Position numbers and translations under genes: made by a program
The notes under the pieces: model-generated
Told to the model about the DNA's origin: nothing
The model's database searches: none
The model's input: only the letters and a program-made list of their open reading frames with translations
Assembly: GCA_044892525.1 (NCBI GenBank)
Contig: CM097888.1
Location: 71,362,001-71,426,000, forward strand
Length of the DNA: 64,000 nt
DNA from: Schmidtea polychroa
Lineage: Eukaryota
Direction of reading: 5' to 3'
Part shown: piece after piece, positions 39,171-63,587 of the stretch
Numbering within the stretch: the stretch's first letter is position 1
Layout: each line of letters opens with the position of its first letter

Positions 39171-40535
39171 AAGGCCTAGAAAAGCGAGAGATAGCAGTTA
39201 AGCTACAATGAGCTAATATCTGAATTAATAGAGAAAGGGAATATTAAAGCTAGCTAGAAACAAATTGAATGTAATTACGGAAATTTGAGTTTAGAGAGGA
39301 AATAAACGAGCTCGTAGAAAAGATAATAAGATTATAATGAAAAAGGAAAGGGAAGAAGGAAACGAATTAAAGAGATAATGGAAAATAAAGAATAGGCGAA
39401 ACGATGATAATGAGTAAAGAGGAAAGTAACCAACTAATTAAAGGGATCCCAGTGAGGTAGAGAAACTCTACGGAATATTTTTTTTGGTTAAACCGGGAAA
39501 ATGCATTTTATTGGTTCCAGAGTAGAACCGAGCGTAATAATAGTAAATATGAAAAGTAAAATAGCGACAACAGCGCAAAAGGAATAGGAAAACGAAGGGG
39601 GGTAATAAGCAGAGACCGACAACGACCTATTTTTACTATAATTGATAACGAATAGATAATTATTACGACTTGATAGATAATTGTTACTACCCCATATAGA
39701 TAATTTAAAATCGACGAAAAATTCGGGCTGATGGGAGATTATAACCCGCGGAAGTAATTGCATAAAAAATAGGGGAAGCATAAACAGAACCTAAAAGGTG
39801 TCTGTGTTCGAACGTTGTTGAAAGAATGATGAAGTCGTGTAAGCAAATGCAACACGAGATCATTTTTTCATTTTAGATATCAAACCAATCCAGTCAACCA
39901 AGACAATCCAGAACCTGCACAAAAGGAATTCGAAGAAATCGACAATCGACCAAGAATAAATTCATTCAGAACCCGCACCGAGAGACACAACAACCGGAAG
40001 ACTCCAGAACGGAAGAAGATACAGATAGCGACATCTCCAACTTCGAACGAATCATCGATATATTCAACCTCATAATATTAGCAGCCATCTGTCAAGGACT
40101 AGTGAATCTCCTCAGAATCACAGTAGCAGATTCATACAGAATATTTATCGAAGGAAACACAATCAGAACCGAACTCGTCCAATTCAATAGCCGCTAATTA
40201 CCAAGAAGCGTAAGAAAGGAATCACGGATAAACCCAATCTTAGATCTTCAAGTAAGCCAGGAGACGTATTATTTTCAGGAGACGAATTACAACAACTCAA
40301 AAGAGGACGATCTATTAAACAGCAAAGAGGAATATCACAAGGATCAAGAAGAACCAATCAAGTACCTATATTTGATCAAGAAAATCTCGGATACACCCCT
40401 AGTCGATCTCGAAGCAGAGAAAGTCTGTCCGACATCACTAATAGTTTAGCAACGTCAACCGAGGAATTATCAGCCCAAAGTTTAGTCACATCGTTAGACA
40501 ATTTAAAAGAAACAGACGAATCTAGAACACCAATC

Positions 40536-41441
40536 ATGACGAATATCGTAAAAACCGACGAGTATAAAGAGAAGTTCAGAGGAGAACCGTTCAACGGAAA
40601 TGCAAACAAGTTAGCAACGTTCATAACTAATTTTGAAGTTTATATCACTGTATGTGGATGGACACCCGAAGCAATTAGTAAAAGGATGCCGTTGTTTTTG
40701 TGCGATAGCGCATTAGAAGTATATTTAGAAGCTAAAGAGAGAGATACGAAATTAGAAAAGTGGGAAGATATCAAAACATTCCTGAAGAAAACCTTCGGAG
40801 CCAGTAAGCCAATCAACCAGGCGTTGGGCGAACTAGCAAATAGGAAACAAAGAGCAAACGAATCGATAACATTATATGCCAGTGAATTGCGGAGATTAGC
40901 GAAGAAAGCAATGAATGGAAAATTACCCGAAGAAAATCTGATCGGTTATTTCATAGAGGGATTACGCCGAGAAGAAGTAAGGGCCTCAGTAGGTTGTCAA
41001 ATGTGCAAAACATTAGAGGAAGCCATAGATTGGGCTACAAGATGCGAGCTCCACCTTCCAGCTCAAATGAATATTATGCAAGAGGAGGGAAGGATAATGA
41101 CAGCAATAGCGAAAGCGGATAACGGAGATAACAACAATCAAGAACCGAAAATGAATCAATTTATACCAGGAGCGCACCAAATTTTCAAACCACCACAAGG
41201 ACGATCAAATGGGAATAATGGTAATCGTAACAACCCGAATAATGAGAACAATTTTAATAATCGACGAAATATGAACGATAACAAGCAGTGTCGAACATGC
41301 GGTAAACCAGGACACTGGGACAGAGATTGCTATAGAAATTCAAATTGTAATCGTTGCGGACGGCGTGGACATACCGAAAATGTATGCCAATTGAGAGGTT
41401 GTTTTAACTGTGGTCAGCCAGGTCACATCTCCAGAGATTGC
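40536..41441 (+). other. Polyprotein domain: Gag capsid plus three CCHC zinc knuckles (41289-41441)
   Basis: EPFNGNANKLATF..F..Y capsid start; CRTCGKPGHWDRDC, CNRCGRRGHTENVC, CFNCGQPGHISRDC. Confidence 0.9.
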
Positions 41442-47400: not shown

Positions 47401-50400
47401 CATCTAACAGCGATAGTGACGACGATGATAACGGGAACGATAAATGTCTATATCCAAACAGAAACCCAAACGAAAAACCAATGGAAACGGCACCATATTG
47501 GGAGAAGGAAAAGACAAATACCTGGATCGCCAATGGAAGCTACATACCACCGGATATCGCGGGACCACAAGCAGCTTTGACCATGACACAAAATATGTAT
47601 CCGCAATTACCAAGTCAACCCGGTATGCATTATATGCCAACACGACGTACCAAAAGTGTAGATCAAGCAGATGACGTAAGAACAATAGCAGCGATGAGTT
47701 TACCTGGAGGTCCAGCAGTAACAGTTATGATTCAAATCAATGGTAAAGAAACCAATGCTATGATAGACACAGGAGCTAATGTATCAGCGATAGCGATTAA
47801 TCAAATTCCCAGTAAACACTGGAAAGATATCGAATCCACAACAATTCACATCATAGCATGTAGTAAAGAAACAGTGGACGTGGTCGGAAGATGGTGGACT
47901 ACATTGAGATACCAGGACAACGAAATTGAAACGTATTTGGCAGTAATACCAAAACTTAGCGTACCATGCATAATCGGAACGGATTTGATGCCAGAATTGT
48001 TAAAAGAAGTCGTAATTGACTTAACAACCATGTGTTTAAAAGACAAAACCGGTAGAATATGCAAAATGAATGTAGTCATCAGATGTCCAGAAAAAATAAT
48101 AGTACCAGCAAAATCGCAGATGATTTGTCAGATAAAAGTGGATACGGGTATGGAAGGAGAAGTTATCTTTGAACCAAGCAAGTCATTTGAAAAGCGACGA
48201 GAATTACCACTCGCAAGAGAAATAATCACAATAAACCAAGAAGGAGTGATACCGCTCAACATCACGAATTTCGAAGAGGAAGACAAAATCATTTATGAGA
48301 ACGAAAAATTAGGAAAATTGACCCCAATGATGGACATAGAATTACCGAAAGTGACCAACGAGATGATCAAAGATGATGAATTATGGACAATAGATAGTAT
48401 GTTGTTGACGAATGATGAAAAGAAAAAATTGCACCGATTGTTGGTAGAATATAAAGATATATTCGCCATCTCAGATTTAGACTTGGGTACATGTGATGTT
48501 ACCTTACATGCAATACCACTCATAGACGAAACCCCAATTGCATTGAGACCATACAAGTTAGCAGAAATGCAGAAAGAAATAGCCGAAACAGAAGTACAAA
48601 AGATGCTAGACGCAAAAGTAATCGAACCAAGTTGCTCACCCTGGCAATTCCCAGTGGTCATGGTAAAAAAGAAAGATGGCACCCAACGATTCTGTATCGA
48701 TTATCGGAAGTTAAACGCAGTAACCAAGAGAGATACCTATCCATTGCCGGACATCAATGAGATGTTATTGATGTTGCAAGGGGCAGCATATTTTACTTCT
48801 TTAGATCTAAAAAGTGGATACTGGCAGATTAAAGTCAAAGATGAGGACAAAGAGAAAACAGCTTTCACGTTGGGACGAGATCTATATCAATTCAGGAAAA
48901 TGCCATTTGGACTGACCAACGCACCAGCATCATTTCAACGGTGTATGAACTTTGTCACCCATGGAATCAAACAATGTATGGTATATATTGATGATTTACT
49001 AATCTATTCAGCGACATTTGAACAACATCTGGAAGATATCCGAAACGTATTTATTAGATTAAGACAGTGGAAACTCAAACTCAAACCATCAAAATGCGAT
49101 TGGGCAAAGGAAAAAGTCACGTTTTTAGGACACATAGTGTCAGCTAAAGGAAAGGAGCCAGATCCAAGAAACATTGAGAAAATAAAAACATGTCCAGCAC
49201 CGAAAACTGTCACCCAAGTTCAGGAATTTCTAGGATTATGCGGATACTATCGCAAATTTATCAAAAATTATGCAGGAATTGCAAAACCAATCCAGGAATT
49301 AGTAAAGAAGGACATTTCGTTCATTTGGGGGAAGGAACAACAAGAGGCGTTCGAAACGCTGAGAGATAAACTAATCGAAGCACCTATCCTCGTACACCCA
49401 GATTTTAAGAAGCCATTTCTATTGGCAACGGATGCAAGCGGGTACGCGGCAGGCGCGATTCTGGGACAATTAGATGATGAAGGAAAAGAGAGAGTAATCG
49501 GGTATTACAGTCGAACATTCAAAAAGCACGAAAAGAACTATTCGGTAACAGAACGGGAAGCATTGGCTATAATACAAGCTATCAAACACTTCCGATACTT
49601 ACTATGGGGACATGAGATATGTATAACCACAGATCATCAACCATTAGTGTGGTTAGGGCAACATAAAGAAGCGTCCAGTAGACTGATGAGATGGGCCATG
49701 CAATTGCAAGAATACTCCCCATTTATAAAATTCAAAGCGGGAAGAGCAAATGCCAACGCCGATTGTATGTCAAGATTTATTTTCCCAGATTTGGTGGATT
49801 CAGAAATGCAACGCATATGCTTAATAGTAGCGGAAGATTTGGATTTCTGTCAACTGCGAAAGGACCAACAAGAGGACGCGGAATTAAAACAAATTATCGA
49901 TTATGTAAAAACCGGAAAGACAGATGTATATGCGAAAGACCAAAAATTAAAAGAACATATGGATAAACACCGACACCGATATATTATAGAGAAAGATTGG
50001 TTGCTGATAATGGATGGGGAAAAACGATTAATGTGTATACCGGAAAACCGACGAAAAGAGTTACTAACGCAATATCACGATGGGAGATTGGGAGGACATA
50101 TGTCATCGAAAAAGACGTTAGCAAGAATGAAACAGAAATATTTTTGGCCTACGTTAACTGAAGATGTAACCGAATGGGTAAAAAATTGTCTAACTTGTGC
50201 AACCAGGAAGAATACTGGATCGAAATGGAAAGCACCTTTAACGCCAATGCCAGTACCAATAGAACCAATGACAATGATATCCATGGACGTAGTTGGTCCA
50301 CTACCAGAGTCAGATAAAGGAAACGTTTACATTCTAGTGATCACAGACTTTCTTACGAAATTCCCAGAAGCATTCGCGATGCCAGACCAAAAAGCTAAAA

Positions 50401-53400
50401 CAATCGCAAAAATTTTGGTAGAAGAGATATGTTGCCGATATGGAACACCAAAACAAATCTTAACCGATCAGGGAACTAATTTTATGAGTGAGATAATGAG
50501 CGAAGTAACAAATTACTTCAAAATAGCAAAACTAAGAACATCTCCATACCACCCTCAAACCAATGGGATGACGGAAAGATTTAATGGAACACTTATACAA
50601 ATGTTATCAAACTACGTCGACCGTCACCAACGAGATTGGGACGAATATATAAACCTATGTCTTATGGCATACAGAATGTCGATTCACGCATCAACGAAAA
50701 TGAGCCCATTCAAATTAATGTACGGAAGAGAGTGTAATATGCCAATGGACCTGGAATACCAACCACCGATATCGCAGTATATGGAGATCGATGATTATGT
50801 TACGAAATTCAAGGAAAGAATGCAAGAGATTTGGGAAACTGCGGGATTAAATATCAAGTTCTACCAGGAAAGTTATAAAGATTTACACGATCGAAAGAAA
50901 AACGTGAAGCAACATACGTTTCAAACAGGTGATTGGGTAATGATAGAAACCCCGGAATTAATTCCAGGAACCACAAAAAAGTTACAACGCAACGGAAAAG
51001 GACCATATGAGATCTTATTCGTAGGCGAAACTAATGTAAGAGTGAAATTGGTAAATAACCCCTTTACCAGGCCAATATACGTAAACGTGGCACGATGCAA
51101 ATCAATTCCAAAAACAGCCACTAGTCAACCAGAAGGCCGTACATTAACCACACGTTCGCAAACCTACAGAATGAACATGATGCAACAACTCGCAGAACCG
51201 ATCACTGGACGATTAGGTATCCAACCATCAGAAGCGGAAAAGATTGTAAAAGAGGTAAAAATTAAAATACCTGGATGGGCAAAAGATCGATTAGATTTCG
51301 AAATATTAGGAGGATTATTGACGATGATCGAGAACTATGCAAATAGAGAAAGGACACACCCATTATTGCGAGTAGTCAAAAGCCAATGGCCAATATTATT
51401 TACCATAACAGATCATTACGGAGACACACCATTACACAAACTCATGAAAGTAGGTAACAACGAGCAAATACTAGAAACAATAGAAGCATTTCACGACTGC
51501 AAGCGATCAACAGAACAAACAAACAACCAAGGTTACACACCATTAATGATAGCCGCAAACAGAGGCAAAACAAAAGACGTTATAACCGCATTACTCGATA
51601 CTGGATCGAAAATAACTACACAAGACCACGAGCGGAAAAACGCTCTATATCATGCTATCGAAGGGAGAAGTACCGAGGCGTTCACGTCATTGATGGAACT
51701 ACTATCATATGAGGACAATCGAGAAGTCGGAAACATGTATGATGGATTATTAACAGCGATCAAAGAGAAACTGACAACAATTACCGGAATATTAATTACA
51801 TGGAGAAATCCAATTCAAAACGATTATATGATCAACGTAAACGAAGCGTTCACGAGAGGAGAGAACACGCTGATGAGAGAAGCTATGAAAGGACATCATT
51901 TATTCGAAATCCCGAATCAATTACTAGAACGAGGGATAAAATTCACAAATCACAAAGATGAACAGTTAACAAAAAAGCGAATCGACACATTCGAAAAATC
52001 ACTATTCCAATTTACTAACCAAGTACGAAATAAATATTGGGAAACGGTAAGTGTGTTATATATGATGGACACAATGAATAACATCCGCGAGAATTACCTG
52101 GATATTATCCAAATACTTACAGCAGAGGAACGAATCAATAATCCAAACGGAAAGAAAACGAAAATAAGGTATGAGAAATCCAGGGAATCAAAGTCAACAA
52201 CGAACCAAACGGTCACAAACAACGTCATCGAAACCAAATCAATGAGTATAGATCAAGAGGCAATAATACGCAAAGCAAAAGAAGTGTTCTTTGAGGAAAT
52301 GCTAGAGCTGCCAGACGAAATAATATTGTCCAAAATAATAAAAGCCGTACACACATACGCAAGAGATCAAACCACGGGTTTAGATATCGGGAAAATCAAA
52401 ACCTTCTTGCCTCGAGCATTTACGATGGTAACAAAGGATTCCAGAACACCTCTACAACAAGCAATACTAGCTGCAAAAGAGAATAGAGCAATAACGATCA
52501 TGAGCATCCTTGGGGAGATGGGCGAGGAAACCAACACGAAAAATGAACAAGGTGAAACCGCCATGATGTATGCAGCTATAACGAAAATACACCCAAAAAC
52601 ACTCCACATCCTACATCAATCAGGATCGAAACTAGACGAAAGGTCCAATGAAGGAAATTCCACCTTGGACTGGGCAACCATACAGCCAAACTTAGAAATG
52701 ATCAGATTTATTTGCAAAAATGCGACAAAGGAAGAAGTTGAAAACATGTGCAAAGACACATCTCAGTTTCAATGGAATACGATACGGAAAAATCTAGAAG
52801 CAATGAAATTATTATTAACCTGGAGAGTACCACAAAATAATAAATATGCGATAAATGTAAACGAATTCTACGAAAACGGAGAAAATGCGATGGTAAAGAA
52901 CACCCTAACTAAGGGGGGGACGCCTAAAATTATTTTAATAGTATTAAATAGAGAAGACCTAAAATTCACGCAAAATCAGAACGAGCAACAACGAATTGGG
53001 AAACATCGTCGCATGCAATTGAGAGAGTTAGTTAAAGAATGGAATAGAAAGAGACATGCTGCAACGGGTAGAAAAGAGTTTGAATTCGAAGCAAAATTAG
53101 CAAGAAACAGAGTGCTAACAGCATATCGCAGATTATTGAACGATATAAATGTCGAGGACGACATTTTAAACGACAGCGGGGGAGATAAAAACGATGACAA
53201 TGACGGAAAAGGCCGAAAGGAGGATAAAGGGAAAAGAGAACCGGAAGAGGATAAACCGGAAAACAAGGATTTGGATACGAAAAGAGAGGGAAACAGGCCG
53301 GGAACCAAGACCAAAGAGGAGGAAAAATCGAATAATGGAAAACAGAGGGTATGCCTACCTTTCACTAACAAAGAAATAGAGACAAATATGATATTAATGA

Positions 53401-54389
53401 TAATTATGCTTACCATGATAGAGTTAGTAACAGCTCAGGGAGGGACGAGAACGATAAAAGAAACCAAAGAAGCGGAGAATCAAGATAGCAAAGAGGATGA
53501 ACTAAAGCAAGAAAAGAAAAAGCAAGCACAAGAGCAGCAGTGGGATTTAAAGGAAGAATGGGACTTAAAGGAAAGGTGCATACTAGGAAGATGCATGTCT
53601 AGAGCGTATCAGAAACTAGTACTGATAAATGAGGACACAGAACCAATAACAGAAGTAAGAATACAAGAAGCATACCGAAATCGAGACGGGAAGAGAATAA
53701 CGAACGTTAAAGGAAAAGAGGTACACCTAGGAAAAGGTGGTGAAGTAGTAATAACGCAGCTCCAACCTAGAAGAGAGCACAAAGTCTGTATTTCAAGATT
53801 AGGACCAGGTGAGAGATGCCATCAATATGTGACGCAGCAGCAGCCGCCGAAAGAATACACGGTTTGTATCTGGAGGAATGAATCAAAAAGAGAATGCCGA
53901 CGATACCCAGGGAAAAGAGGAAAGAAAAGAAAAAACCACGACGAAAAGAACGAAGGAGGAAAGCACAAGAAAACCGGCGAGGAAGCTCAGGACAACTATG
54001 TTTCGGAGGAAGAGATGGAAAAAATACAAAAGATGGCAAAGGAGGGTATGAACGAGGAAATAGCAAGAATACGGGAAATGATGAAAGGAAATGGCAAAAG
54101 AGGAAACGAGAAAGGTATAGAAGCGATATCAACATTAACGAACAAGGAGAAACCAGAGAATATAAGCGTGAAGCAGATGATGTGGATCAGTGGGATAATA
54201 ATAACAGGGGCCTTCCTAATCATAACGGGGGGAACAATAAAAATAATCAAAGATAAACGACATCGCGGAGAACTAGAGATGACCCGAATCAGAAATTTCC
54301 AACATCGAGTGAAACGACCAAGTGATATCAAACAAGAACAGTGGGTGGAGGCCTGGAACGCTCAGCGCCCTCCAAACTCACGTATATAG
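40536..54389 (+). CDS. gag-pol: Single 4617-aa Gag-Env-Pol-accessory polyprotein (frame open from 40191)
   Basis: No stop or frameshift over 13.85 kb; contains CCHC knuckles, DTG protease, YIDD RT, RNase H and HHCC/DDE integrase. Confidence 0.97.
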   Translation: MTNIVKTDEYKEKFRGEPFNGNANKLATFITNFEVYITVCGWTPEAISKRMPLFLCDSALEVYLEAKERDTKLEKWEDIKTFLKKTFGASKPINQALGELANRKQRANESITLYASELRRLAKKAMNGKLPEENLIGYFIEGLRREEVRASVGCQMCKTLEEAIDWATRCELHLPAQMNIMQEEGRIMTAIAKADNGDNNNQEPKMNQFIPGAHQIFKPPQGRSNGNNGNRNNPNNENNFNNRRNMNDNKQCRTCGKPGHWDRDCYRNSNCNRCGRRGHTENVCQLRGCFNCGQPGHISRDCRERGQQQRAPQRNNNYMANPQRQSNPSEGKQMNVMQEISQMKQMMQQMMRPRQEPAPQQTQNIRMMRSTENLNNYEVHQHVQEWQRLQAEEERIKQERNQQRQEQPLRINMMKLVKDMKSQYCYNYGKNPRVVPMTEPEKVTETTTEMKTENSTTILKGNQRIQKIFWKKIKDKIEKEHNKAKAETEDENNKSKEQTSQLNHQMLQELESEETTIFERKKLKRVPRMRNLQINMMKRTKDVASSDEEEDYVSSLGGEILQLNEISEPPKGEIKEEEGESEITSESEDEDIEMKLRKGKEEAIKQVAEILPVVVRNQEFIDVIPFRRFVQKVMKLERNEKDLIPNEEKSIIKKYMEKMKQADTTRYVIKIGTSRGLERMWIKNTVTDELFDWIREHLGSSRKKEYLYQYQGEQIKPDMHLVDALIWPGETQILKLHKEKQPANLYDWAKDAKAEYDFNIKLKLEQIKQCTLRRNLDKLIKQIQAQVEDNWDLLITRRAPAMYELMSRLRDTEMLRMSDWRTINLIHKYGRLKETQPQRLEITIWLPNEEKRRIKMSNQSTVDDLVSKINQEITEKVRSESSDGMVDDVVMMYDKIILRAEDDTSLSEMGMWDNHQIIRIVPMDEFRTRDVTYQKEIRDRMKTLYQKSTEIIKIHQQWLKEKELQGKITKLSTRSCRRTPWERVWNAETKEWEIRKGIFVETDIGETESESEEEEEEPPEYEEEVREQTSDDESETDVTSESENEARHIHAMRKKEREYADMDGEEAIEAREREEKERYKQLGDILAMGAKNQKRQVVALANIILKTSENIHNLRGMAKAIEEYRQYNEWYPEQLEQIIRKWRNQEWAQDTQERYHIRIKYPDKSIEELEVHPTTKIRELKKKLAYETPFHLQLFGKSLDDNADVGITPMRLEETNVLTMAETLGKPLKRKSKITKLTKGSLSTPSPNKAPSKSNETEEVEEIILEDSDDEPGERSPLLVRWPTGAEMWTNNQPSTSYQQPTKLNIKEIIDNTTETETDEQFQKQREPTKVTPEGQTDKIIDEWNEWLKNNDSSLPRTDNERNPNYENTREAGTMMEKRAKGRPKKQGEKSEFKTKEQLKQEQGQVRLEKLDKIVWDLKEAQPTIERGEKWIRELLKDMLIITNPQLRRLWQRKVASTEARQLWHIVSGIIPKLIKEKTKTTKTDWDETKRVIEQLTTNANDDEHHLVVITYLMYNLMGLAARKIPNKQFANHVEMTVSIIENTIEPHIIRAGGWKRLIQAPRKNEQERSMQVRLKKLLNELEWELPMKDPASRKASINSLMMTMMIWMLCTSGATGFTIYDCDNMIMRDKYSLRDIEECRQASPNKLDIVRTKVTYHVYQESDFIRTQARECVVSKKVLAYYCGQYSYSTLILPGLDKEIVSIQREDCKELFRTGALKMHNGVTIHGQTGMIKTESVYVSGKVKSSDGSCNGGTYTIRGEVISGVVVIESYTVELKEYEAQFDANNYQMKTNPACRATENVCRTGVSTIIYEANTQICRLQLLKSALFNEVKGEIYENENDEDGNDRVRMRNGKPMPPSPREKRLSTQKTPTALITDDPDLGMRFIKEKETTKCDSIVYKTNYAGIYMSRQIIDRAVGKIATEDVKLYLYANNKMDFLFHRGQTTLQKVYYDLIQNDCSLNKEILKTKLAIAITHPDNTMPSLPLPDGHFGRMVGEVMYTYQCTKTYARMPEKSILPEKRCANELEIRYKGQNRFVQPVTRIMNPVGFYPNLFNCSNAYGPLYERPDGKWMMLPGKTISEEPKKFGLIELATELDFKPIDVSNGGMYSPEDLETARLNVLFPARRESILSNMVTITGGTNYQSGPNYELLLSPDHFQQATSNMMKAMWGRFLVFGQMMAGILGIILIIQIVRVILTQMLACFDIYKREKKVNWKMIVGFLPFLAKTMVLHGHSKDIHRIKRLIKILTKIKGTDEEVGRRFRKVMYDEATRRQLKKNKPKFLDRFRSQSSNSDSDDDDNGNDKCLYPNRNPNEKPMETAPYWEKEKTNTWIANGSYIPPDIAGPQAALTMTQNMYPQLPSQPGMHYMPTRRTKSVDQADDVRTIAAMSLPGGPAVTVMIQINGKETNAMIDTGANVSAIAINQIPSKHWKDIESTTIHIIACSKETVDVVGRWWTTLRYQDNEIETYLAVIPKLSVPCIIGTDLMPELLKEVVIDLTTMCLKDKTGRICKMNVVIRCPEKIIVPAKSQMICQIKVDTGMEGEVIFEPSKSFEKRRELPLAREIITINQEGVIPLNITNFEEEDKIIYENEKLGKLTPMMDIELPKVTNEMIKDDELWTIDSMLLTNDEKKKLHRLLVEYKDIFAISDLDLGTCDVTLHAIPLIDETPIALRPYKLAEMQKEIAETEVQKMLDAKVIEPSCSPWQFPVVMVKKKDGTQRFCIDYRKLNAVTKRDTYPLPDINEMLLMLQGAAYFTSLDLKSGYWQIKVKDEDKEKTAFTLGRDLYQFRKMPFGLTNAPASFQRCMNFVTHGIKQCMVYIDDLLIYSATFEQHLEDIRNVFIRLRQWKLKLKPSKCDWAKEKVTFLGHIVSAKGKEPDPRNIEKIKTCPAPKTVTQVQEFLGLCGYYRKFIKNYAGIAKPIQELVKKDISFIWGKEQQEAFETLRDKLIEAPILVHPDFKKPFLLATDASGYAAGAILGQLDDEGKERVIGYYSRTFKKHEKNYSVTEREALAIIQAIKHFRYLLWGHEICITTDHQPLVWLGQHKEASSRLMRWAMQLQEYSPFIKFKAGRANANADCMSRFIFPDLVDSEMQRICLIVAEDLDFCQLRKDQQEDAELKQIIDYVKTGKTDVYAKDQKLKEHMDKHRHRYIIEKDWLLIMDGEKRLMCIPENRRKELLTQYHDGRLGGHMSSKKTLARMKQKYFWPTLTEDVTEWVKNCLTCATRKNTGSKWKAPLTPMPVPIEPMTMISMDVVGPLPESDKGNVYILVITDFLTKFPEAFAMPDQKAKTIAKILVEEICCRYGTPKQILTDQGTNFMSEIMSEVTNYFKIAKLRTSPYHPQTNGMTERFNGTLIQMLSNYVDRHQRDWDEYINLCLMAYRMSIHASTKMSPFKLMYGRECNMPMDLEYQPPISQYMEIDDYVTKFKERMQEIWETAGLNIKFYQESYKDLHDRKKNVKQHTFQTGDWVMIETPELIPGTTKKLQRNGKGPYEILFVGETNVRVKLVNNPFTRPIYVNVARCKSIPKTATSQPEGRTLTTRSQTYRMNMMQQLAEPITGRLGIQPSEAEKIVKEVKIKIPGWAKDRLDFEILGGLLTMIENYANRERTHPLLRVVKSQWPILFTITDHYGDTPLHKLMKVGNNEQILETIEAFHDCKRSTEQTNNQGYTPLMIAANRGKTKDVITALLDTGSKITTQDHERKNALYHAIEGRSTEAFTSLMELLSYEDNREVGNMYDGLLTAIKEKLTTITGILITWRNPIQNDYMINVNEAFTRGENTLMREAMKGHHLFEIPNQLLERGIKFTNHKDEQLTKKRIDTFEKSLFQFTNQVRNKYWETVSVLYMMDTMNNIRENYLDIIQILTAEERINNPNGKKTKIRYEKSRESKSTTNQTVTNNVIETKSMSIDQEAIIRKAKEVFFEEMLELPDEIILSKIIKAVHTYARDQTTGLDIGKIKTFLPRAFTMVTKDSRTPLQQAILAAKENRAITIMSILGEMGEETNTKNEQGETAMMYAAITKIHPKTLHILHQSGSKLDERSNEGNSTLDWATIQPNLEMIRFICKNATKEEVENMCKDTSQFQWNTIRKNLEAMKLLLTWRVPQNNKYAINVNEFYENGENAMVKNTLTKGGTPKIILIVLNREDLKFTQNQNEQQRIGKHRRMQLRELVKEWNRKRHAATGRKEFEFEAKLARNRVLTAYRRLLNDINVEDDILNDSGGDKNDDNDGKGRKEDKGKREPEEDKPENKDLDTKREGNRPGTKTKEEEKSNNGKQRVCLPFTNKEIETNMILMIIMLTMIELVTAQGGTRTIKETKEAENQDSKEDELKQEKKKQAQEQQWDLKEEWDLKERCILGRCMSRAYQKLVLINEDTEPITEVRIQEAYRNRDGKRITNVKGKEVHLGKGGEVVITQLQPRREHKVCISRLGPGERCHQYVTQQQPPKEYTVCIWRNESKRECRRYPGKRGKKRKNHDEKNEGGKHKKTGEEAQDNYVSEEEMEKIQKMAKEGMNEEIARIREMMKGNGKRGNEKGIEAISTLTNKEKPENISVKQMMWISGIIITGAFLIITGGTIKIIKDKRHRGELEMTRIRNFQHRVKRPSDIKQEQWVEAWNAQRPPNSRI
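42534..44194 (+). other. Polyprotein domains: three ubiquitin-like domains (~42534-42745, ~43053-43299, ~43998-44194)
   Basis: Patterns parallel ubiquitin's beta-grasp, e.g. IRIKYPDKSIEELEVHPTTKIRELKKKL...LQLFGKSLDD and ITIWLPNEEKRRIKMSNQSTVDDLVSKI...DTSLSEMGM. Confidence 0.65.
44757..45215 (+). other. Polyprotein domain: Bcl-2-like helical bundle
   Basis: IENTIEPHIIRAGGWKRLIQ aligns to Bcl-xL BH2 (LNDHLEPWIQENGGWDTFVE); a degenerate BH1 sits at the expected upstream spacing. Confidence 0.6.
45327..47135 (+). other. Polyprotein domain: envelope glycoprotein (signal peptide, Cys-rich ectodomain, REKR furin site at 46119-46130, TM), chuvirus-like
   Basis: Signal INSLMMTMMIWMLCTSGATG|FTIYDC; motifs YDC..YSLRDIEEC, YCGQYSY, DGSCNGG, C.L.KEILKTKLAIA, GEVMY..QC, GMYS.EDL..LFP; TM at 47049-47135. 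Confidence 0.8.
47718..47990 (+). other. Polyprotein domain: aspartic protease
   Basis: AMIDTGANVSAI (Asp codon at 47766) and IIGTDLM. Confidence 0.92.
48540..49785 (+). other. Polyprotein domains: reverse transcriptase and RNase H
   Basis: SPW.FPVVMVKKKDG..RFCIDYRKLN, LDLKSGYWQI, MPFGLTNAPASFQ, YIDD (48984); TDASG, E.EALA, TDH, NANADCMSR. Confidence 0.97.
50070..51110 (+). other. Polyprotein domain: integrase with GPY/F motif
   Basis: H..RLGGH...CLTC; MDVVGP, TDQG, TERFN (D,D35E); GKGPYEI. Confidence 0.95.
51411..52920 (+). other. Polyprotein domains: two duplicated ankyrin-repeat modules after integrase
   Basis: GDTPLH, GYTPLMIAA, KNALYHAI; RTPLQQAI, GETAMMYAA, GNSTLDWA; both modules end in TWR..N.Y.INVNE....GEN. 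Confidence 0.85.
53388..54249 (+). other. Polyprotein C-terminal module: second signal peptide, FN3-like ectodomain, TM helix
   Basis: MILMIIMLTMIELVTAQ (53388-53438); VVITQLQPRREHKVCIS resembles the FN3 L.P.T.Y motif; TM MMWISGIIITGAFLIITGGTIKII (54177-54249). Confidence 0.55.
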
Positions 54390-54549: not shown

Positions 54550-54909
54550 ATGGATCAAGGAAATAACGAAATGAACCACAATACAGTAACTGAAGAATTA
54601 TGGAAGCAACAATGTGCCGTATTAGCACAATTAGTGTCCAATTTGCAAGAACAAGGATTGACGATGCACAGAAACCTAATCGAGAGTATGAATAGAGGAT
54701 TTAGTTATTTGAAGATAATTGAAGACCAGAGGTTGAAAATCGAACAAATGCAAAGAGAGATAGAGAGGATAACCCAATATAGCCGTAGACAGGAAATTGA
54801 ACTAAACAGAATGATGGAGGAAGCAGAACAGACAGAAATAGAAGACTGGTCGGAATGGTTAATGAATAGAGAGGAGAGCGGACACGAAGCCGACTCTTCC
54901 GAACCCTAA
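54550..54909 (+). CDS. 119-aa coiled-coil/acidic accessory protein
   Basis: First ATG at 54550 (the track starts at TTG 54526); helical E/Q/R-rich sequence; AATAAA at 54942. Confidence 0.65.
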   Translation: MDQGNNEMNHNTVTEELWKQQCAVLAQLVSNLQEQGLTMHRNLIESMNRGFSYLKIIEDQRLKIEQMQREIERITQYSRRQEIELNRMMEEAEQTEIEDWSEWLMNREESGHEADSSEP

Positions 54910-54994
54910 ACCAAACCTAGCTTAAAATGTAAATAATTGTAAATAAAATATCGAACCTGTATCGATAAGAACTATTTGTACATATAATTATAGA

Positions 54995-56383
54995 ATGGAT
55001 AAACGACAAAGAGAAGAGTTCAGAGAGATTGTCGAGCAAGTCCGAAAATCTACAACGATCAGAATACACAAACATGTTATGTGCGGAATATGTGAAAAGT
55101 TGTTAAAGGAACCTCACCAAACGCAATGTGGATGCAGAGTATGTAAAGAATGTATCAGTGAAGCAATAAAGAATAGACCACAGAGGTGCCCGGTGTGTAA
55201 AGAGACACTAATATCGAGTTTAGAAGACACTAACGAGGATAAAGCCGCAGTGAAAGACATGTTAAACACCAACCTGGGATGCAAAAATGCCCCATGCGAA
55301 TGGAAAGGAGTAATATGGAAGGTAGTACAACATATGGGAGAATGTATGTACAGAATTGGCCAGTGTGAAAGGTGCCATAAAACCATTCGAGCAAGCGAAG
55401 AAAAAGAGCATCAAAGGCAGTGTGAGGAGAGATTAGAAAGATGTGAACACTGTGGAGAAATAGATACGTGGAAAAATCTCACCCTCAAACATCACAATGT
55501 CCAAGAGGAGAGAGTATGTGCAGAGTTCAGTGGGGAATGCCCAAACGGATGTAACCAAGGGGAAATAATGAAGGTGGCACAGCATCTAAGGGAATGTGAA
55601 AAGAAAAGAATGACATGCGTACTAGGCAAATGGGGTTGTCAGAAACTACTACACCGAGGGGAGTTACCACATCATTTAGTAGAAAATGCTTCAACCCACG
55701 CAGAAATGTGGTCGACTGCGTTACAAGAAAGCGAGGAGAAAGTAAAACAAATGGAGATAGAGATAGCATCGTTGAAAGTATTAGTCAAAGAACTACTAGA
55801 AGAAAGGGAAGCGTTCGAAGAAGCCCGAGCAAACATAAAGATGCAAATAAACCGAATAGAAATCAGTAATAATCAGGCCAAGGAGCTACATCAGAAAATA
55901 CGGGAAATAAATCTAAATGAGATAACCCCAACAGCACCCTACATATGGAAGATTACGGGAGTAAAGGAAAGAATACGAAAAGCAAAAACCGGAGAAGAGA
56001 CAAGAATAACAAGTCCTGCATTCCATTCTTGGAAAAATGGGTACAAAATGAAAATGAAGATATATCCCAACGGGGACGGAACCGGATTAGACACACACTT
56101 TTCGATTTTCTTTCTGTTATGTAAAGGAGAATACGACGAAATAATAGAGTGGCCGTTCCAGGCGAAAATCGATATTGCACTAATGAATGACCGAAACATC
56201 CACGAACAAAGCTTCAAGACAACTGGAAACCAAATGTGTTACCAGAGACCTACGGAAGAAGAAGGATCAGCAACAGGAGCACCTACGTTCATCCTACAAC
56301 AAAAAGTAGAAGATATGGCAAGAAAGGGCACGGTGTATATCAAGATGACCGTAAGGAAAGAGGAGAAGGGCAGAACGGAGTAA
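54995..56383 (+). CDS. Intronless full-length TRAF-family protein (RING, TRAF zinc fingers, coiled coil, MATH domain), 462 aa
   Basis: CGIC..LLKEP.QT.CGCRVC..C..CPVC; GC.W.G....H...C; YIWKI...SPAF..GYKM..KIYPNGDG.G..TH.S.FF.L.KGEYD..I.WPF. Confidence 0.93.
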   Translation: MDKRQREEFREIVEQVRKSTTIRIHKHVMCGICEKLLKEPHQTQCGCRVCKECISEAIKNRPQRCPVCKETLISSLEDTNEDKAAVKDMLNTNLGCKNAPCEWKGVIWKVVQHMGECMYRIGQCERCHKTIRASEEKEHQRQCEERLERCEHCGEIDTWKNLTLKHHNVQEERVCAEFSGECPNGCNQGEIMKVAQHLRECEKKRMTCVLGKWGCQKLLHRGELPHHLVENASTHAEMWSTALQESEEKVKQMEIEIASLKVLVKELLEEREAFEEARANIKMQINRIEISNNQAKELHQKIREINLNEITPTAPYIWKITGVKERIRKAKTGEETRITSPAFHSWKNGYKMKMKIYPNGDGTGLDTHFSIFFLLCKGEYDEIIEWPFQAKIDIALMNDRNIHEQSFKTTGNQMCYQRPTEEEGSATGAPTFILQQKVEDMARKGTVYIKMTVRKEEKGRTE

Positions 56384-56577
56384 ACGATCGAATAATGTTG
56401 TATATAATAATCTGTATATATCGGTGTATATAACCAATAAAATATTATATAATAATAGTATGAAAAACCCTAAATACGTAAACCCAAAAATGATGCGAAA
56501 ATTTCCAAAGAAACAGCAAATAATGAATAAATTCCTTTTTCATAATAAAAAGCTTAATCGATGTCTATGATTTAGAG

Positions 56578-57633
56578 ATGACACAAGAGAAACTAACCGA
56601 AACTGCGATAGTCCCAACCAATGTCAACAAGACACAAATTCCCCGAGAACATAACAAAAAATGGAACAAAGTAATGTTCCAACTAACTAATCTCACCCGA
56701 AATCACATCGAAGAAGCTAGAGAGGATGAGAATAGTCAATACCAATGGTTAATACACAACTTAAGAGCGGAAGCAGAAGCATGCAAAAGAGCATCAAAAT
56801 GGGCGTCACTAGAAAATACCCGCCAAGAAGCGCACAGCCACTACTTAAAGCAGCTAGTGCAGGAAGCGAGAAAGAGACTTACCGATGAGAACACCAAGCG
56901 CGAAGCGGAAAAGCAAATAGAAGGAAGGAAAATGATGCACTTAGTGGCAGAAGCGAGAAAATGGAAAAGACAAAGCAATGAAATGAAAAAAGAGATGAAA
57001 GAATTGCCCATGAGACTCGGATATGAGAGCGAACAGGGTAAATGGGAGGAAAATTTAATAATAAAGGAAGAACTGAAACGGTTGAAAAAGGTCGCCGCCC
57101 GAAGCCAAACATGGCAGATGAAGGCTATGGAGTTTGAACGACATTTGGCAATAAAATGCGACATAAGAGAGCACGAGAATGCCGCAATGGAAGAGATGAT
57201 AACCCAGCAAGCAGGACGGGTTGTGGAATTAGTAAATCAGGTCGAAGAGATGAAAAGAGACCTTAATGGATTACAAGGATCGTTAGAACAAAGAAACATG
57301 GTCCTGGCGGGAAAAAACAGAAAATTAGAAAACGAGAGGAAAATGTATACCGAAAATATCAAAAACTTGGAAATAGAAATTGAAAAATGGAAGGGCGACG
57401 AGAAAATCAAGGCCTTAGATAGACAAGTAGAGGCGAAAGACGAAGAGACAAGGTATCTCACTTATCTGCTCGACGAAGAGCTGAATATCACTCGAGCTCT
57501 AAGAGACGAAGTTAATGAATTGAGAGCTCAAATCCCCCAATATTACCTACCCTATGACCCTATTGCGATACAGTTGCATCCAGCGGTCGATAGTGATGAA
57601 GGTTATGTGGGACAGGAGGAAACCTTCGTATAA
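56578..57633 (+). CDS. 351-aa coiled-coil accessory protein ending in ETFV
   Basis: Long heptad-rich ORF with the element's codon style; TAG 2 nt before the ATG; AATAAA 6 nt after the stop. Confidence 0.75.
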   Translation: MTQEKLTETAIVPTNVNKTQIPREHNKKWNKVMFQLTNLTRNHIEEAREDENSQYQWLIHNLRAEAEACKRASKWASLENTRQEAHSHYLKQLVQEARKRLTDENTKREAEKQIEGRKMMHLVAEARKWKRQSNEMKKEMKELPMRLGYESEQGKWEENLIIKEELKRLKKVAARSQTWQMKAMEFERHLAIKCDIREHENAAMEEMITQQAGRVVELVNQVEEMKRDLNGLQGSLEQRNMVLAGKNRKLENERKMYTENIKNLEIEIEKWKGDEKIKALDRQVEAKDEETRYLTYLLDEELNITRALRDEVNELRAQIPQYYLPYDPIAIQLHPAVDSDEGYVGQEETFV

Positions 57634-57800
57634 GGGTGAATAAAAGGATAAAAACAAAAATCGGGACGTATATCCCAAACAAAAAAATTAAAGTATTGTA
57701 AAAGTATTCAAGGGACTGTAACCCGAACTATTAAAATTTTATATAAATGCATAAGTATAAGTCGCACTATAGCGCACCATTAACTGTACATATTACAGAT

Positions 57801-58508
57801 ATGAAAATCGAGGAAATAATAGAAATTACGAGCGACGTGGAAGAGGGAGAGATTGAGGCAGAAACAACAGAAACACAAACGTTAAAGGCCAAGTTACGGG
57901 AAGAGAGGGACGAAAACGAGAGACTAATAAACAAATATATAGAAGACCGAAAAATGATTAAAATACTAAAGAAGGAGTGCGAAGCGTTAGGAGAAATAAA
58001 GAGAGAAGCTGAAGAGAAGAATGAATGGTTGCAAGAACAACGAACACGAGGAAGAAACTGGGAAAAGATTGCAGAGGAACTATGGCAAGAGAGGGCAAGC
58101 TTCAAGGCAGAAGAAGTAATCCAAGATTATTGGAAAACAGAGGCGAAAGAACACCAAATAACTATAAATAAATTAAATCGACAATTGGAGGAAAAACAAC
58201 GAGAAAGTGAGGAAATGAAGAAATGGATTCGCAAGTACCAAGAGATCGAGAGAAAACAACAACAACAACAACAACGAAACCTTTCGCAGGAAAACGAACA
58301 AGATTTCCTACAAATCGAACTAAAAAGGAATCTCGACAAGAAACGGGAAGAAATTAAGAGACTGAAAAAGGAGATAAGGCACATGAAAAGGGAGGCCCGT
58401 GAAAAGAACAGACAGTTGGAAATGCTGCCCGAGTTAAGACACAGAGTCATTAAAGCGGAATCCACCCTGATGAGAATCGCCGAAAATAACCCAAACCAGA
58501 ATCATTAA
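57801..58508 (+). CDS. ~235-aa coiled-coil accessory protein (253 aa from the upstream ATG at 57747)
   Basis: TTAAC..TATTACAG|atATG at 57801; E/K/R/Q-rich helix; AATAAA at 58535. Confidence 0.72.
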   Translation: MKIEEIIEITSDVEEGEIEAETTETQTLKAKLREERDENERLINKYIEDRKMIKILKKECEALGEIKREAEEKNEWLQEQRTRGRNWEKIAEELWQERASFKAEEVIQDYWKTEAKEHQITINKLNRQLEEKQRESEEMKKWIRKYQEIERKQQQQQQRNLSQENEQDFLQIELKRNLDKKREEIKRLKKEIRHMKREAREKNRQLEMLPELRHRVIKAESTLMRIAENNPNQNH

Positions 58509-58549
58509 ATTAAGGGTCACTAAAACCAATTGTAAATAAACCATAATGA

Positions 58550-59209
58550 ATGTATAATAGTATCATGCGAGGCGAGATGATGATAACAATGACGGTATTG
58601 ATGATTCTGACGGAGAACAAACAAGTAAACGCCCAACCGAAAATCGTGCGAGATTACCGAAATCAAAATCAAGAACCTAAACGAGAATCCGGCCAATGCA
58701 CATACCCTATGACAGTAAAAATCCATATCATCCAAACCCTTCAATCAACCCGTTCACACATCAACAACATCCAAACAATGTGTAAAAAGAATCCCATTTG
58801 TAAAATGATAAACAAACAAATCCTCGAACAAATCCAACAATTCGACCAGCTAGAACAACAAATGCAACAAGAGAATTTTGAAAATCTTGTAGAAAAGCCA
58901 AAAACACCTCCCGAAATCAATGACACCCATTATCTCATATATGTGGTGATCGCAGAAACCCTCCTCCTATGTCTACCAATACTCATGAAGATTTACGAAG
59001 TTAGAAATAAATGTAGAACCCCGACAGCAATAAGAGTAACCTCGAACAGAAATCCTCAAGAAGTGCCACTGACAAATCTTAACCCAACCCCATTCCGACC
59101 TCGAATCCCGAGTAACCAACCAATCCAGCCGAATTCTTACAGTCAGACCTATCTCAACATCAATACCCAAACCAACCAACAACCGCCGGCAGAAGCATCA
59201 AATGGTTAA
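58550..59209 (+). CDS. 219-aa type-I membrane protein (signal peptide, helical ectodomain, TM, P/Q/N-rich tail)
   Basis: MMITMTVLMILTENKQVNAQ; three ectodomain Cys; TM YLIYVVIAETLLLCLPILM; tail contains YLNI. Confidence 0.72.
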   Translation: MYNSIMRGEMMITMTVLMILTENKQVNAQPKIVRDYRNQNQEPKRESGQCTYPMTVKIHIIQTLQSTRSHINNIQTMCKKNPICKMINKQILEQIQQFDQLEQQMQQENFENLVEKPKTPPEINDTHYLIYVVIAETLLLCLPILMKIYEVRNKCRTPTAIRVTSNRNPQEVPLTNLNPTPFRPRIPSNQPIQPNSYSQTYLNINTQTNQQPPAEASNG

Positions 59210-59441: not shown

Positions 59442-62400
59442 TGTTGGGCTGAATCGAAGGGTAGTTGAGAAATTAGGGCAAACTTAACTAAAATAAAATA
59501 AAAAATAAAAACAAATAAATTGACAAACAAAATAGAATAAAACATAAGAAAAACAATAATTAGAAAATAGGAATTAAAACAAAAAATATAAAGATGAGAA
59601 AAAATTAAAATAGGACAATAGAATGGCGGAAAACAACGTAAAATATAGTAAATAATAAGAAAATTAAGGAAAATAAATAAAAACATAATTTTAATAAAGA
59701 AAGTAAGAAGAAATAACTCAAAAACAAGGAAAATAAATTAAATTAATAAAATTAAGCGGTACTCAATTCTAATTGGTCCGCGCAAACAAAAAATTAATAT
59801 ATAAGCAGGCATTAAAAACATAACAATTACTGTTAATCAACCACCTCAATAGGTAAGCGAAATTTAAACAAAAATACTGTTAATCAACCACCTCAATAGG
59901 TAAATCTATTCTACGACAGAACAGAACTCCAGCAACTAACGCACGATAACTCACGAGGACAATCCCAAGATTCAAGAGATTTTTACAGAACTAGACGATA
60001 TTCGAGCATTAACTGATTCGACATAGTACCCTTTTCGACTCAGCCCATACTTGTATCAATCATTCAGTAAGGATTTTTGATTGCTTATTTTGAATTTTTA
60101 AGTAATGCGTATAGTTTAATAATATTTTTAATTTAAAAAATGGTTTTTCTTTTCGTTTGATTTTCGAATGCTTTACTTAAATTAATAATTTGCTTAATAA
60201 TAAATGATTTGCTCGTTAAGAATTATTGATCTTTTATGAATTAATTTGTATGAATTATTGGAGACTATTCAATTTTGCGAGAAACGTGGCGTTGAGATAC
60301 TCTATGTCATGGTGTGAGGTGCCTTCGGGAGCTCCACCGGTGGACATAGGGTATTTCAATCACGCAGCTAGATTGGGCCGAAATGTGAGGGCTTCTTCAC
60401 GGGTCCAATTGCTGAAGGTGCGACTAAAAGCTATAGGTAAATGGTGGCAGAAAATTGATAGTCATGTAGTGATTGAAAACAAAGATATATAATAAAGGAA
60501 TCGGAGAGTTTGGATGTATTCGCGCAGTGATTGAGGGTGTCGCACTATCGTCTTCAAATATCGTTTTTGCTAAACCTAAAAATCTCTCTATCATCAATGT
60601 AGGTTGTGCGTCAAAAATTGTTCAAACCTTAATGAGGCTATCTGTGACATATCTTTGATGTTCATACCTTTCACTCAGAATCTGTTCCGACCAATTTTAG
60701 CCTATGACCTTTTGAACTATTATTCCGTTCACCTAAAAGTTCTCTTAAAGACATCGTTGCAAGGAAGCTCAAAGTAGATTGCTTCAGATAATTATTGGAA
60801 TTATTCCAAATGACTGTTTACGGATAAATTGTAGAACTACGTAAAATAATTTATTATAGATAATTGTTAGAACTTCATAAAACGAGTTTGTTCCAATTAA
60901 AATTTTGAATTACATAAAATAATTTACTTCAATTAATTTTTTTTTTGAATTATATAAAAATATTTACCTATAATCAATTATCATAATTACACGAACTATT
61001 GGCATCAAATAATTTAAAATGAAAAATGCAACCAATTCGAACCAAGAAAATATATTTCTTCAAGTTAGCCGATAATCTTGTTAAATACAAAATTCCAGTA
61101 TTACATGAGGTTGGCAATCCAGCAGAGATAGGAAAAAATCCTCCAGCACTTAGAGAGTAGATTGATAAACTAGGCTTGAGGAATTAGAGACGAAAAATCC
61201 ACCCTTGGAGCAAGCAGTATCCAACATTTGCAATATAGATAATTTTAATTTTTCCAATAATCCGGTGAGAATTAGTAAATCATCACCATATGCCGTAGAA
61301 TTGTGAGCGAATACGCGGTGGATAAAATTCTGAGAGAATGCCATCATGCAAACATTCAACGCCTGCATTGGTAGTATAATTAAGCGGGTGAAAGCGCACC
61401 TGGCATGCGTCACCAGTTGCAGACTTACCTAATAGCCAAGTACAGTAGACAAAGTCACACACGCATCTACTCATGAAAAATTAGATCGAACATGCCAATT
61501 AAACTACCGACAGCTATCAGATTTCACCGCTTCGGATTAAGAGTCAATCACTGGGCTGACATTACCTTATCTACCCAGCAGGTATGATCGACTACTAGCT
61601 CACACTGATACCGTGCTCAGTTGTTATAAAGACACTAACATTTAATGATAAACTCGATCATAATTATGAGTATTCTCTCGTTATTATCTTAGCATGAATG
61701 GCACCGAAATTATTTCAATTTTTGACATAGTTATCATTAATATTAGTATCGAATATTGTTAAATAAATATTATGTAAACCAGGTAAAACACATACGTGAG
61801 TAATTAAAGAAAATGAATAAACAATTAAAAATTTAAATAACCTTCCGTTTGTCCTGTAGGAACTAATCAACAGGCATTATGGACCCCTTTTCCATAGATA
61901 GTCACTCGACCCCAATATATGATACACTCAGTAAAAGCACTCGTACGGGGGGAGAAGTCGACAATTTAAATCGATTCTCGGTAAACGTGAAATAATGACT
62001 CCAAGCGGATTAAATAAATAATCAGTTTCATCGACATAGAATTTCTCTCACAAACAGTAATCTCTTCCTTTTCCTTGTGCGAAATCTGGGTTGATTGATT
62101 TATCTTCTTATAATTAAAGCCCCGAAAGGGTACGAGAATCCATCGCGTAGTAGAACTTGTCCTGACTGGTAAACCCTTATTTTTGTCTATGATCAGTACA
62201 GTATGAATGTAGTCAGGTGGTGACGCTCCCGCTGATTTAATTATTTTCATTTTCTTTTTCACAGTCGCTCAAAATGTTGCCAAATTCCAAGCCCGTTCTT
62301 CGACCTTGTTTTTCTTGCTCCGACAAGAATTCAATTATCAAAGAGCTCCAGGCCCAAATTGGCAAGCACAAAAGAAGGATAGATGAGTTAGAGGGGACAT

Positions 62401-63587
62401 GGTTTAGTCCCACCCAGATGAAGGAGGCTCAGAAGAAGCTGCACCGAAGCGAGCACTGTAGAGACGCGTTGATTTCCGAGAGTCGGGCGCAGAGGAGCCT
62501 GATAAAAGAGCAGTCGGAGGCGCTGCACAAATTGTACGTCCAGGCCGCAACTACAAGGAAGATCGCGAAGATCCCGATTAACGAAGCCAGTAACCTTTTC
62601 CCAGCACATCATGATATCTCTGGCGGGTCTTCTCCTCCAGTCGGAAAGTCCTGCCATGGGTGCGTAGAGACCGAGCTCTCACCTAAAGGACCAGAAATCA
62701 TCTTTACCGGAACCAGTAAAGTGCTACCTGCGATAGCATCCACCTCAGCAGCACCCTCGACCAACCAAACAGCATCGAAGCCAAAGCGTCGACAATTATC
62801 GAGAGCAGAACGAAAGAAAAAACAGCGGGAACGCATAACCGCCAAACAGAACCAGCAATCGTCGGATCATCCAATCAAAGTCATCAACCCCCCTGCAGCA
62901 ATCGATTTAGCACCAGTGATCTCAGGGCGAATCATCTCCGCCGCTGGTGTTACCTGGGAGGAAAACGCCTCTGAGTTTTTCGATTTGGAAGATCTATTGG
63001 CAGACTCGGAGTGGGAGAAATGAGAACTTCCCCGTAAAAAGTCTTCGTTCTCTGAATTGACCTGAACATTGTCTGATAACATTTTACCTTGTCTCTTTTC
63101 CCGTTGTCGTGAACTTTATTGTATAGGTGTTAGATATATTTGTGTGATAATCTTAATAATAAACCATTTTTGTCTGCATACGTTCTTTTTGTGTTCATCT
63201 TAAGACAGTTGAGTTGAAATTGGTAAATGGTATTGAGAGTCATAAAATTATGAGGAGCATTAGTCAGTTGGTAAACTCAGCTAGAAATATTGCGATGGGG
63301 CGACGGAATGAGTAGACGTAAGTCCTTCTATCGGCAGTCAGGGTTGGGAAGTCGAGGCCTCAGTAAGGAGTAGTCCGAAGGAGCTGGCTCACCTGCTTAC
63401 TGGCGTCTCGCCGGCATAGCACAGTTCCAACGTGAAGCAATTCACGGGTGCTATGTTGGAGTGTAAGTTATGTACGGGTCCCGCTCGGCGATGACCAAAT
63501 AAATGACGGGCGAAATCGAGGTGGGCATTCATCCTCTAGACTAAAGCTGCACTAGAAAGGGGTCATCCGAGTAGTGTACCCGCAACA
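59442..63587 (+). repeat. 3' LTR (4146 bp)
   Basis: Same sequence as the 5' LTR; the only difference noticed is T11 versus T10 near 34745/60937. Confidence 0.97.
62274..63023 (+). CDS. LTR-encoded 249-aa protein, 3' LTR copy
   Basis: Translation identical to 36083-36832. Confidence 0.75.
   Translation: MLPNSKPVLRPCFSCSDKNSIIKELQAQIGKHKRRIDELEGTWFSPTQMKEAQKKLHRSEHCRDALISESRAQRSLIKEQSEALHKLYVQAATTRKIAKIPINEASNLFPAHHDISGGSSPPVGKSCHGCVETELSPKGPEIIFTGTSKVLPAIASTSAAPSTNQTASKPKRRQLSRAERKKKQRERITAKQNQQSSDHPIKVINPPAAIDLAPVISGRIISAAGVTWEENASEFFDLEDLLADSEWEK

Follow-up and report, generated by a model that had tools for sequence, protein, structure and literature searches.

In a 64,000-nt stretch of Schmidtea polychroa DNA (contig CM097888.1; hereafter, the window), we identified a giant LTR retrotransposon that carries a complete TRAF gene, and we conclude, with a probability of roughly 0.93, that this TRAF is kept by selection as an accessory gene of an env-bearing Gypsy element of the Burro type. 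Coordinates are positions in the window, and all element features lie on the plus strand.

The element spans positions 33250-63587 (30,338 bp, or 30.3 kb) and is bounded by a 4147-nt 5' LTR (33250..37396) and a 4146-nt 3' LTR (59442..63587), which begin with TG, end with CA, are 99.98% identical and differ by one indel and zero substitutions. A 4-bp target duplication, TACC, flanks both ends of the element. Thus, the insertion is very young. Each LTR also contains a 249-aa ORF (36083-36832 and 62274-63023) without a Pfam match, for which frames with 65-77% identity exist in diverged LTRs. Downstream of the 5' LTR, we found a probable primer-binding site that starts with TGG (37404..37421) and presumably resembles the end of a tRNA-Pro, an ORF for an IAP-type RING protein without a BIR domain (37722..38207; 161 aa) and, in the leader, 5.4 copies of a 74-bp tandem repeat (38771..39171). 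The 4617-aa polyprotein (40536..54389) comprises Gag, CCHC knuckles, a Monjiviricetes-type fusion glycoprotein (env), protease, RT, RNase H, integrase and ankyrin repeats. Its last 300 aa (53300-54389) contain signal-peptide-like and membrane-span-like stretches after the ankyrin repeats, giving this end the appearance of an additional membrane protein.

The IAP-type RING ORF lies upstream of the polyprotein, and the accessory ORFs on its 3' side follow in the order orfA, TRAF, orf3, orf4 and orf5. orfA (54550..54909; 119 aa; dN/dS 0.06-0.30) is located directly upstream of the TRAF in both Burro families that we identified in this genome (see below), and orf3 (56578..57633; 351 aa), which, like orf4 (57747..58508; 253 aa), is coiled-coil-like, has a homolog in the second of them, family B. 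orf5 (58550..59209; 219 aa; dN/dS 0.15-0.48) is the least constrained and fastest-evolving accessory ORF and resembles a type I membrane protein, with a hydrophobic N-terminus, one membrane span and a short tail, in which the words N-(P/S)-x-E and Y-x-N-I are kept in diverged copies. Atlas searches with orfA and orf5 yielded weak leads only.

Burro, or GYPSM1, elements are giant Gypsy-like LTR retrotransposons of planarians, reportedly described by Jurka in 2007 and by Grohme et al. in 2018. The window element matches this kind in its length of more than 30 kb, its 4.1-kb LTRs and target duplication, its giant ORF1 with Gag, env between Gag and the protease, the PR-RT-RH-IN order and ankyrin repeats, and a MATH_TRAF_C domain in an accessory ORF (54995-56383); the assignment is made by comparison with the published description. 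That description, by Arkhipova & Yushenova 2019, lists an in-frame env, accessory ORFs and MATH_TRAF_C, BIR, ankyrin and BCL2-like motifs as Burro cargo, and places MATH_TRAF_C on a separate upstream accessory ORF in a D. tigrina element (PMC6431247). The Burro kind of element, the MATH/TRAF domain as a Burro accessory ORF and viral TRAFs are already known. That text names a MATH_TRAF_C domain alone, in ORF1 or an upstream ORF (PMC6431247), whereas the window element carries a complete TRAF downstream of the polyprotein. We found no MATH domain in the window polyprotein, no Pfam match to a BCL-2 domain there (the BCL2-like motif being known from the literature only) and, by Pfam, no BIR domain in the window, where the IAP-type RING stands alone; a BIR is present in family B. 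Among the texts covered, our literature search, in which PMC6431247 was the only hit on Burro cargo, turned up no description of a retrotransposon with a complete RING-bearing TRAF, nor of the selection, origin or share in the planarian TRAF count of an element TRAF, although figures of the Burro paper and Grohme et al. 2018 may show the ORF.

The TRAF ORF (54995..56383; 462 aa, ATG to TAA, without an intron) encodes an N-terminal C4C4-type RING (residues 30-68), five TRAF-type zinc fingers (96-227), a coiled coil (232-306) and a C-terminal TRAF-C/MATH domain (316-455). The RING was matched by Pfam at residues 29-68 (PF00097, E 1.3e-4, just over its cut-off) and the MATH domain at residues 316-449 (PF21355, E 3e-25; PF22486, E 4e-24). 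No zf-TRAF match was obtained in this ORF at E<=0.01; four complete C-C-H-C fingers are apparent in the sequence (96-117, 124-143, 150-175 and 182-201), followed by a fifth of the C-C-H form (208-227). An alignment to the RING and zinc-finger region of TRAF5/TRAF6 covers residues 22-154 (E down to 2.5e-15), and the C-terminal half aligns with TRAF1/2/3/5. An AlphaFold2 model based on a 99-sequence alignment (mean pLDDT 93.6, against only 44.9 for a single-sequence fold) predicts an unbroken helix over residues 232-306 together with a MATH sandwich that matches TRAF1/2/3/5 (Foldseek E 3e-19). Thus, the ORF, Pfam matches, alignments and model all bear out the sequence-only reading, in which the RING, zinc fingers, coiled coil and MATH domain were described as intact and intronless. 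The eight RING ligands (C30, C33, C45, C47, C50, C53, C65 and C68) are invariant in 50/50 copies, and the CGC noted by that reading is correct as seen, C45-G46-C47 standing where TRAF5/6 have C-G-H. The element protein resembles vertebrate TRAF1/2/3/5 in domain order and fold, but differs from them in the replacement of the fourth RING ligand, His, by Cys. The position of the linker-helix Arg is occupied by Lys87, as in several host TRAFs, and that of Arg147 in zinc finger 1 of TRAF6 by Trp108 in the family of the window (family A).

A DNA search with the TRAF yielded 360 candidates, 40 of which were scored, all at least 95% identical. Element flanks were present at 30/30 fetched loci, and of the 29 loci without gaps, 28 had no stop; among the 150 best TRAF protein matches, 134 by hand tally lie in open frames of 462 codons or more and are free of stops over the matched part. 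We then anchored a copy census on the 150 best-scoring integrase matches. The TRAF is located downstream in 142/150 of these copies: at the expected offset in 123, at a shifted offset in 5, and whole or in part in 14 of the 22 others, all of which were fetched. One further copy, with an insertion, has its TRAF match 36 kb further on. The seven copies without a TRAF within 8 kb are broken, likeness to the element ending before the TRAF (six in the polyprotein, one in the next spacer), with orfA gone too, so that no clean TRAF-less variant was present among the 150 integrase-anchored copies; older copies are under-sampled, given that the census took the best-scoring ones. Likewise, the TRAF is present in 30/30 copies chosen by the polyprotein end. 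The sequence-only reading would have been undone if other copies of the element lacked the gene, which is not the case.

The TRAF is under purifying selection on all four domains while moving with the element. Comparison of the window TRAF with other copies gave dN/dS of 0.09-0.17 in 10/10 pairs (upper 95% bounds 0.14-0.26), and each domain is constrained (0.03-0.47, the highest value coming from very few changes). This constraint is similar to that on the C-terminal part of the polyprotein and weaker than that on the integrase (dN/dS 0.00-0.02). Furthermore, the TRAF has adopted the element codon bias: third-position A/T frequencies are 0.45/0.15 in the TRAF and 0.45/0.18 in the polyprotein, compared to 0.30-0.38/0.30-0.38 in six host TRAFs. 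A neutral passenger, that is, a host retrocopy of recent origin undergoing decay within the element, is therefore virtually untenable: the absence of introns, and nothing else, speaks for it, whereas it is refuted by dN/dS of about 0.1 and is further at odds with the element-type codon bias, the retention of the gene in two deeply split families and an identity of only ~31% to the nearest host TRAF (host range about 27-31%). The sequence-only reading had named near-identity to a host gene and neutral decay as grounds for rejection, and neither is observed. In some copies (L069, L081-L100), adjacent regions of a single copy differ by as much as about tenfold in their dS from the window, a sign of recombination between subfamilies; these are probably mosaic subfamilies produced by template switching.

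In family B, the polyprotein pol region is ~55% identical to that of the window element, and a 474-aa TRAF, ~30% identical to the window TRAF, occupies the same position, after the polyprotein and orfA, and is followed by an IAP with BIR and RING, the RING being 38% identical to that of the IAP-type ORF in the window. One family-B copy (L151:1543-4286; L075 = G000:C1:21536973-21554785) carries a MATH domain within its 4791-codon polyprotein frame in addition to the downstream TRAF and the BIR+RING IAP. We considered a third Burro family with a polyprotein MATH only and rejected it, because this same copy has the family-B TRAF and IAP downstream. A subfamily 70% identical to the window family was also found. 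Compared to the published description (PMC6431247), the window family has neither a polyprotein MATH nor a BIR, and family B combines a polyprotein MATH with a downstream TRAF and an IAP.

To place the gene, we took TRAF relatives from a full HMMER search, a word-index protein search having returned a single relative. The RING pattern matched 94 of the 151 database relatives, with His at the fourth ligand in 70 and Cys in 24. Cys occupies this position in 10/10 aligned host-type RING-bearing TRAFs, and TRAF-2, -4 and -5 of Dendrocoelum lacteum also have a CGC RING. Moreover, eight host-type TRAFs run from RING to MATH in one open frame (330-487 codons); the best of these, L061, is single-copy, with the next match at 51%. 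Thus, CGC and the absence of introns say nothing about the element, given that host planarian TRAFs have both. The variant RING is not specific to the element, nor a mark of a dead or decoy RING, since host genes share it. Similarly, intron absence as proof of mRNA capture was rejected as uninformative; from the proposal of a retro-captured host mRNA, what stands is a host-derived TRAF in an LTR element. The element TRAF shares with planarian host TRAFs, such as D. lacteum TRAF-2/-4/-5, the CGC RING, the arrangement of the zinc fingers, including an insertion in the third, and a common clade. Unlike these host genes, which are single-copy and have host codon use, it is multi-copy, only ~27-31% identical to them and, in family A, has Trp108 and an altered MATH groove. 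Smed-TRAF-2A/B are other planarian host TRAFs (PMC7586133). Near one host TRAF (L061:485-1345), proteasome-subunit and SelR matches are fused in one frame, perhaps a mosaic of captured gene pieces.

The tree was constructed with IQ-TREE from 44 of 121 rows, namely, 15 outside rows plus every planarian-type row that had no long branch. As the sequence-only reading had suggested, the element genes were placed in a phylogeny with the host paralogs: the element TRAFs form a single clade (100/100) that joins 20 planarian CGC TRAFs (99/98), and the MATH domain of the polyprotein is placed together with the element TRAFs (92/95). Monophyly of the host TRAFs is weak (81/53), and nesting of the element clade in either host subclade was not rejected (p-AU 0.20 and 0.41), so that the tree is compatible with an element clade that is either sister to the host CGC clade or nested in it. 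Direct kinship with the vertebrate-type TRAF2 group was rejected (p-AU 0.0009), as was a two-capture tree with family A alone placed with one host subclade (p-AU 4e-5). It thus appears highly probable from the tree that the TRAF was captured once, long ago, from a planarian-specific clade of CGC-RING TRAFs, before the two Burro families split, and we infer that the direction was from host to element. The opposite flow, with the host single-exon CGC TRAFs being domesticated element-borne TRAFs, would agree with clades that are sisters or nested and with the lack of introns between RING and MATH in either; however, it is very improbable, considering that the host genes have D. lacteum orthologs and host codon use, and that orfA, orf3 or close Burro polyprotein remains were found within 10 kb of 0/12 host-type MATH loci.

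These 12 loci are part of a survey of MATH domains in the genome. A Pfam MATH search returned 1551 candidates, of which 150 were scored and classed by profile span and frame length as element-type (94), host-type (55) or ambiguous (1), and 20 classed loci were verified by a 10-kb fetch. Burro neighbors were found at 8/8 element-type loci, in contrast to the host-type ones. Searches for the three element MATH types gave 261, 293 and 297 candidates, a sum of 851 versus 1551; thus, the two Burro families supply roughly half of the MATH matches in the S. polychroa genome, a crude figure, since the candidates stem from separate searches and do not count copies, and one in which the 70%-identical subfamily is probably uncounted. 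The expectation that mobile copies account for a large share of MATH genes therefore holds in this genome. A genuine host expansion exists beside the Burro copies, in the form of tandem arrays of intron-containing TRAF/MATH genes on contig C2 at ~1-5, 26-32 and 105-124 Mb (L037-L060, L076, L079 and L080). The array TRAF L079 has an intron, and the array genes form a clade of their own (100/99); the idea that they are element offspring is unsupported. Published planarian counts stand at 121 MATH domains (PMC6109357), 282 contigs (PMC7586133) and, in a supplementary table of RING genes, 100 TRAF hits (PMC8807557). Inflation of such counts may be far smaller than in the genome, because they were taken from transcriptomes, in which near-identical copies would be collapsed. 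Nevertheless, five nameless database proteins (P0001, P0005, P0018, P0023 and P0151) sit in the element TRAF clade, so element TRAFs do enter protein sets.

The spacers around the accessory ORFs point to a possible expression route. The spacer 5' of the TRAF (54910..54994) contains a twin TGTAAATA motif, the second copy of which runs into AATAAA, and a third copy of the motif; the twin motif is kept in family B. The spacer 3' of the TRAF (56384..56577) contains three TGTATATA motifs and AATAAA. On the plus strand, 11 of the 12 TGTA[ACT]ATA motifs of the element fall in the 3' spacers (825 nt; mean 0.54 and maximum 4 in 1000 shuffles), namely, 54390-54549, 54910-54994, 56384-56577, 58509-58549 and 59210-59441. 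The enrichment recurs in family B (7 vs 0.69) and in the 70% subfamily (9 vs 0.65). Beside AATAAA, this motif resembles a Pumilio element or a cleavage-factor site, and we regard these motifs as candidate Pumilio or 3'-end-processing sites. Additionally, a TAG one base before the TRAF ATG is a candidate splice acceptor. A pyrimidine-AG occurs 0-3 nt before the ATG of the TRAF, orf3 and the RING ORF (3/7 first ATGs vs 27/237 internal ATGs) and, by eye, at four family-B ORFs. Spliced or trans-spliced subgenomic RNAs are thus a likely expression route of the accessory ORFs. Contigs of two presumed-RNA runs overlap the TRAF, although these may be DNA.

As for function, we lean slightly toward a working adaptor that favors survival of the element-expressing host cell, rather than a pure decoy. 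The TRAF would be made from a subgenomic RNA whose splice acceptor is the AG immediately preceding the TRAF ATG, and would trimerize via the coiled coil and MATH domain; its somewhat altered MATH groove would bind receptor tails or adaptors, and its RING would form pairs either with RINGs of its own kind or with those of host TRAFs. Jointly with the element IAP or IAP-type RING and the ankyrin cargo, it could tilt TNF-receptor and innate-immune signaling toward survival of the replicating cell. TRAF2 and cIAP are established partners. A pro-survival adaptor is suggested by the conservation of all domains, the IAP in the sister family, the increase in cell death upon planarian TRAF knock-down (PMC7586133) and the activity of TRAF RING heterodimers (PMC5702613). 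Conversely, Trp108 may weaken ubiquitin transfer in the window's family, which lacks a BIR domain, purifying selection is equally compatible with a decoy, and the single tested viral TRAF promotes apoptosis (PMC3352826).

A dominant-negative decoy, which would bind receptor tails or join host TRAF oligomers, transfer ubiquitin poorly and so dampen TBK1/TAK1-type immune signaling against the element, is possible but doubtful. Trp108 at the zinc-finger-1 Arg position is found in two family-A subfamilies 70% apart, the MATH groove residues (those we take to line the groove) are changed relative to host L061 and TRAF2, and planarian TRAFs participate in a TBK1-dependent nucleic-acid response (PMC13563047). 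However, constraint on the RING and zinc fingers is as strong as that on MATH, with all RING ligands kept, family B has Lys at the zinc-finger-1 Arg position, and the CGC change is ancestral, a C4C4 RING being known in the ligase NOT4 (PMC4890865). Moreover, family B keeps the full TRAF despite a MATH-only module in its polyprotein, which argues that the RING half adds something. We consider it improbable that the TRAF acts within the element cycle, as a signaling or trafficking module working with element proteins, such as the orf5 tail or Gag, instead of host receptors. The orf5 membrane span and tail, with Asn168 and Glu171 of N-(P/S)-x-E invariant in six copies 41-89% identical, and the conserved orfA-TRAF order would be in line with such a role, whereas none of the scanned TRAF-binding consensus patterns fits the tail word in full and the family-B ORF at the place of orf5 has no significant similarity to it.

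The earlier premise that viruses typically recruit TRAFs rather than encode them is not supported, because ORF111L of ISKNV and related iridovirus proteins are virus-encoded TRAFs. ORF111L (296 aa; RING, coiled coil and MATH) is described as pro-apoptotic via TRADD and caspase 8 (PMC3352826), and iridovirus TRAFs rank second and third among the structural neighbors of the element TRAF model. The element TRAF and the megalocytivirus TRAFs have RING, coiled coil and MATH in common and are each related to the TRAFs of their host group; ORF111L belongs to a large DNA virus (PMC3352826), whereas the element protein has retained five zinc fingers and sits in a retroelement.

With the adaptor reading in mind, we tentatively suggest that Burro carries a self-encoded TRAF-IAP survival module, expressed from separate RNAs under the TGTA[ACT]ATA motifs, that might rewire planarian death and immune signaling. 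This suggestion has corollaries for piRNAs and for TRAF expansion. SMEDWI-3 degrades traf, ankyrin-repeat and E3-ligase mRNAs (PMC6824462); because element TRAF copies outnumber host TRAF genes, piRNAs against these copies could explain the SMEDWI-3 targets. If the suggestion is true, elements would be the source of some of the TRAF expansion reported for planarians and of some of the signals seen in traf RNAi or expression work. The findings bear on the planarian TRAF expansion, to which Burro copies and real host arrays would contribute together, and planarian annotation, RNAi design and piRNA-target lists should keep element and host TRAFs apart. Furthermore, the published remark that Burro may interfere with apoptosis and ubiquitination in its host (PMC6431247) can now be tested on a specific gene, a TRAF that is complete, is under purifying selection and has an IAP beside it in the sister family. 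Outside the element, the window also contains a bZIP-like host ORF of 192 aa (15091-15669), with a Pfam match below the cut-off (E 7.5e-5).
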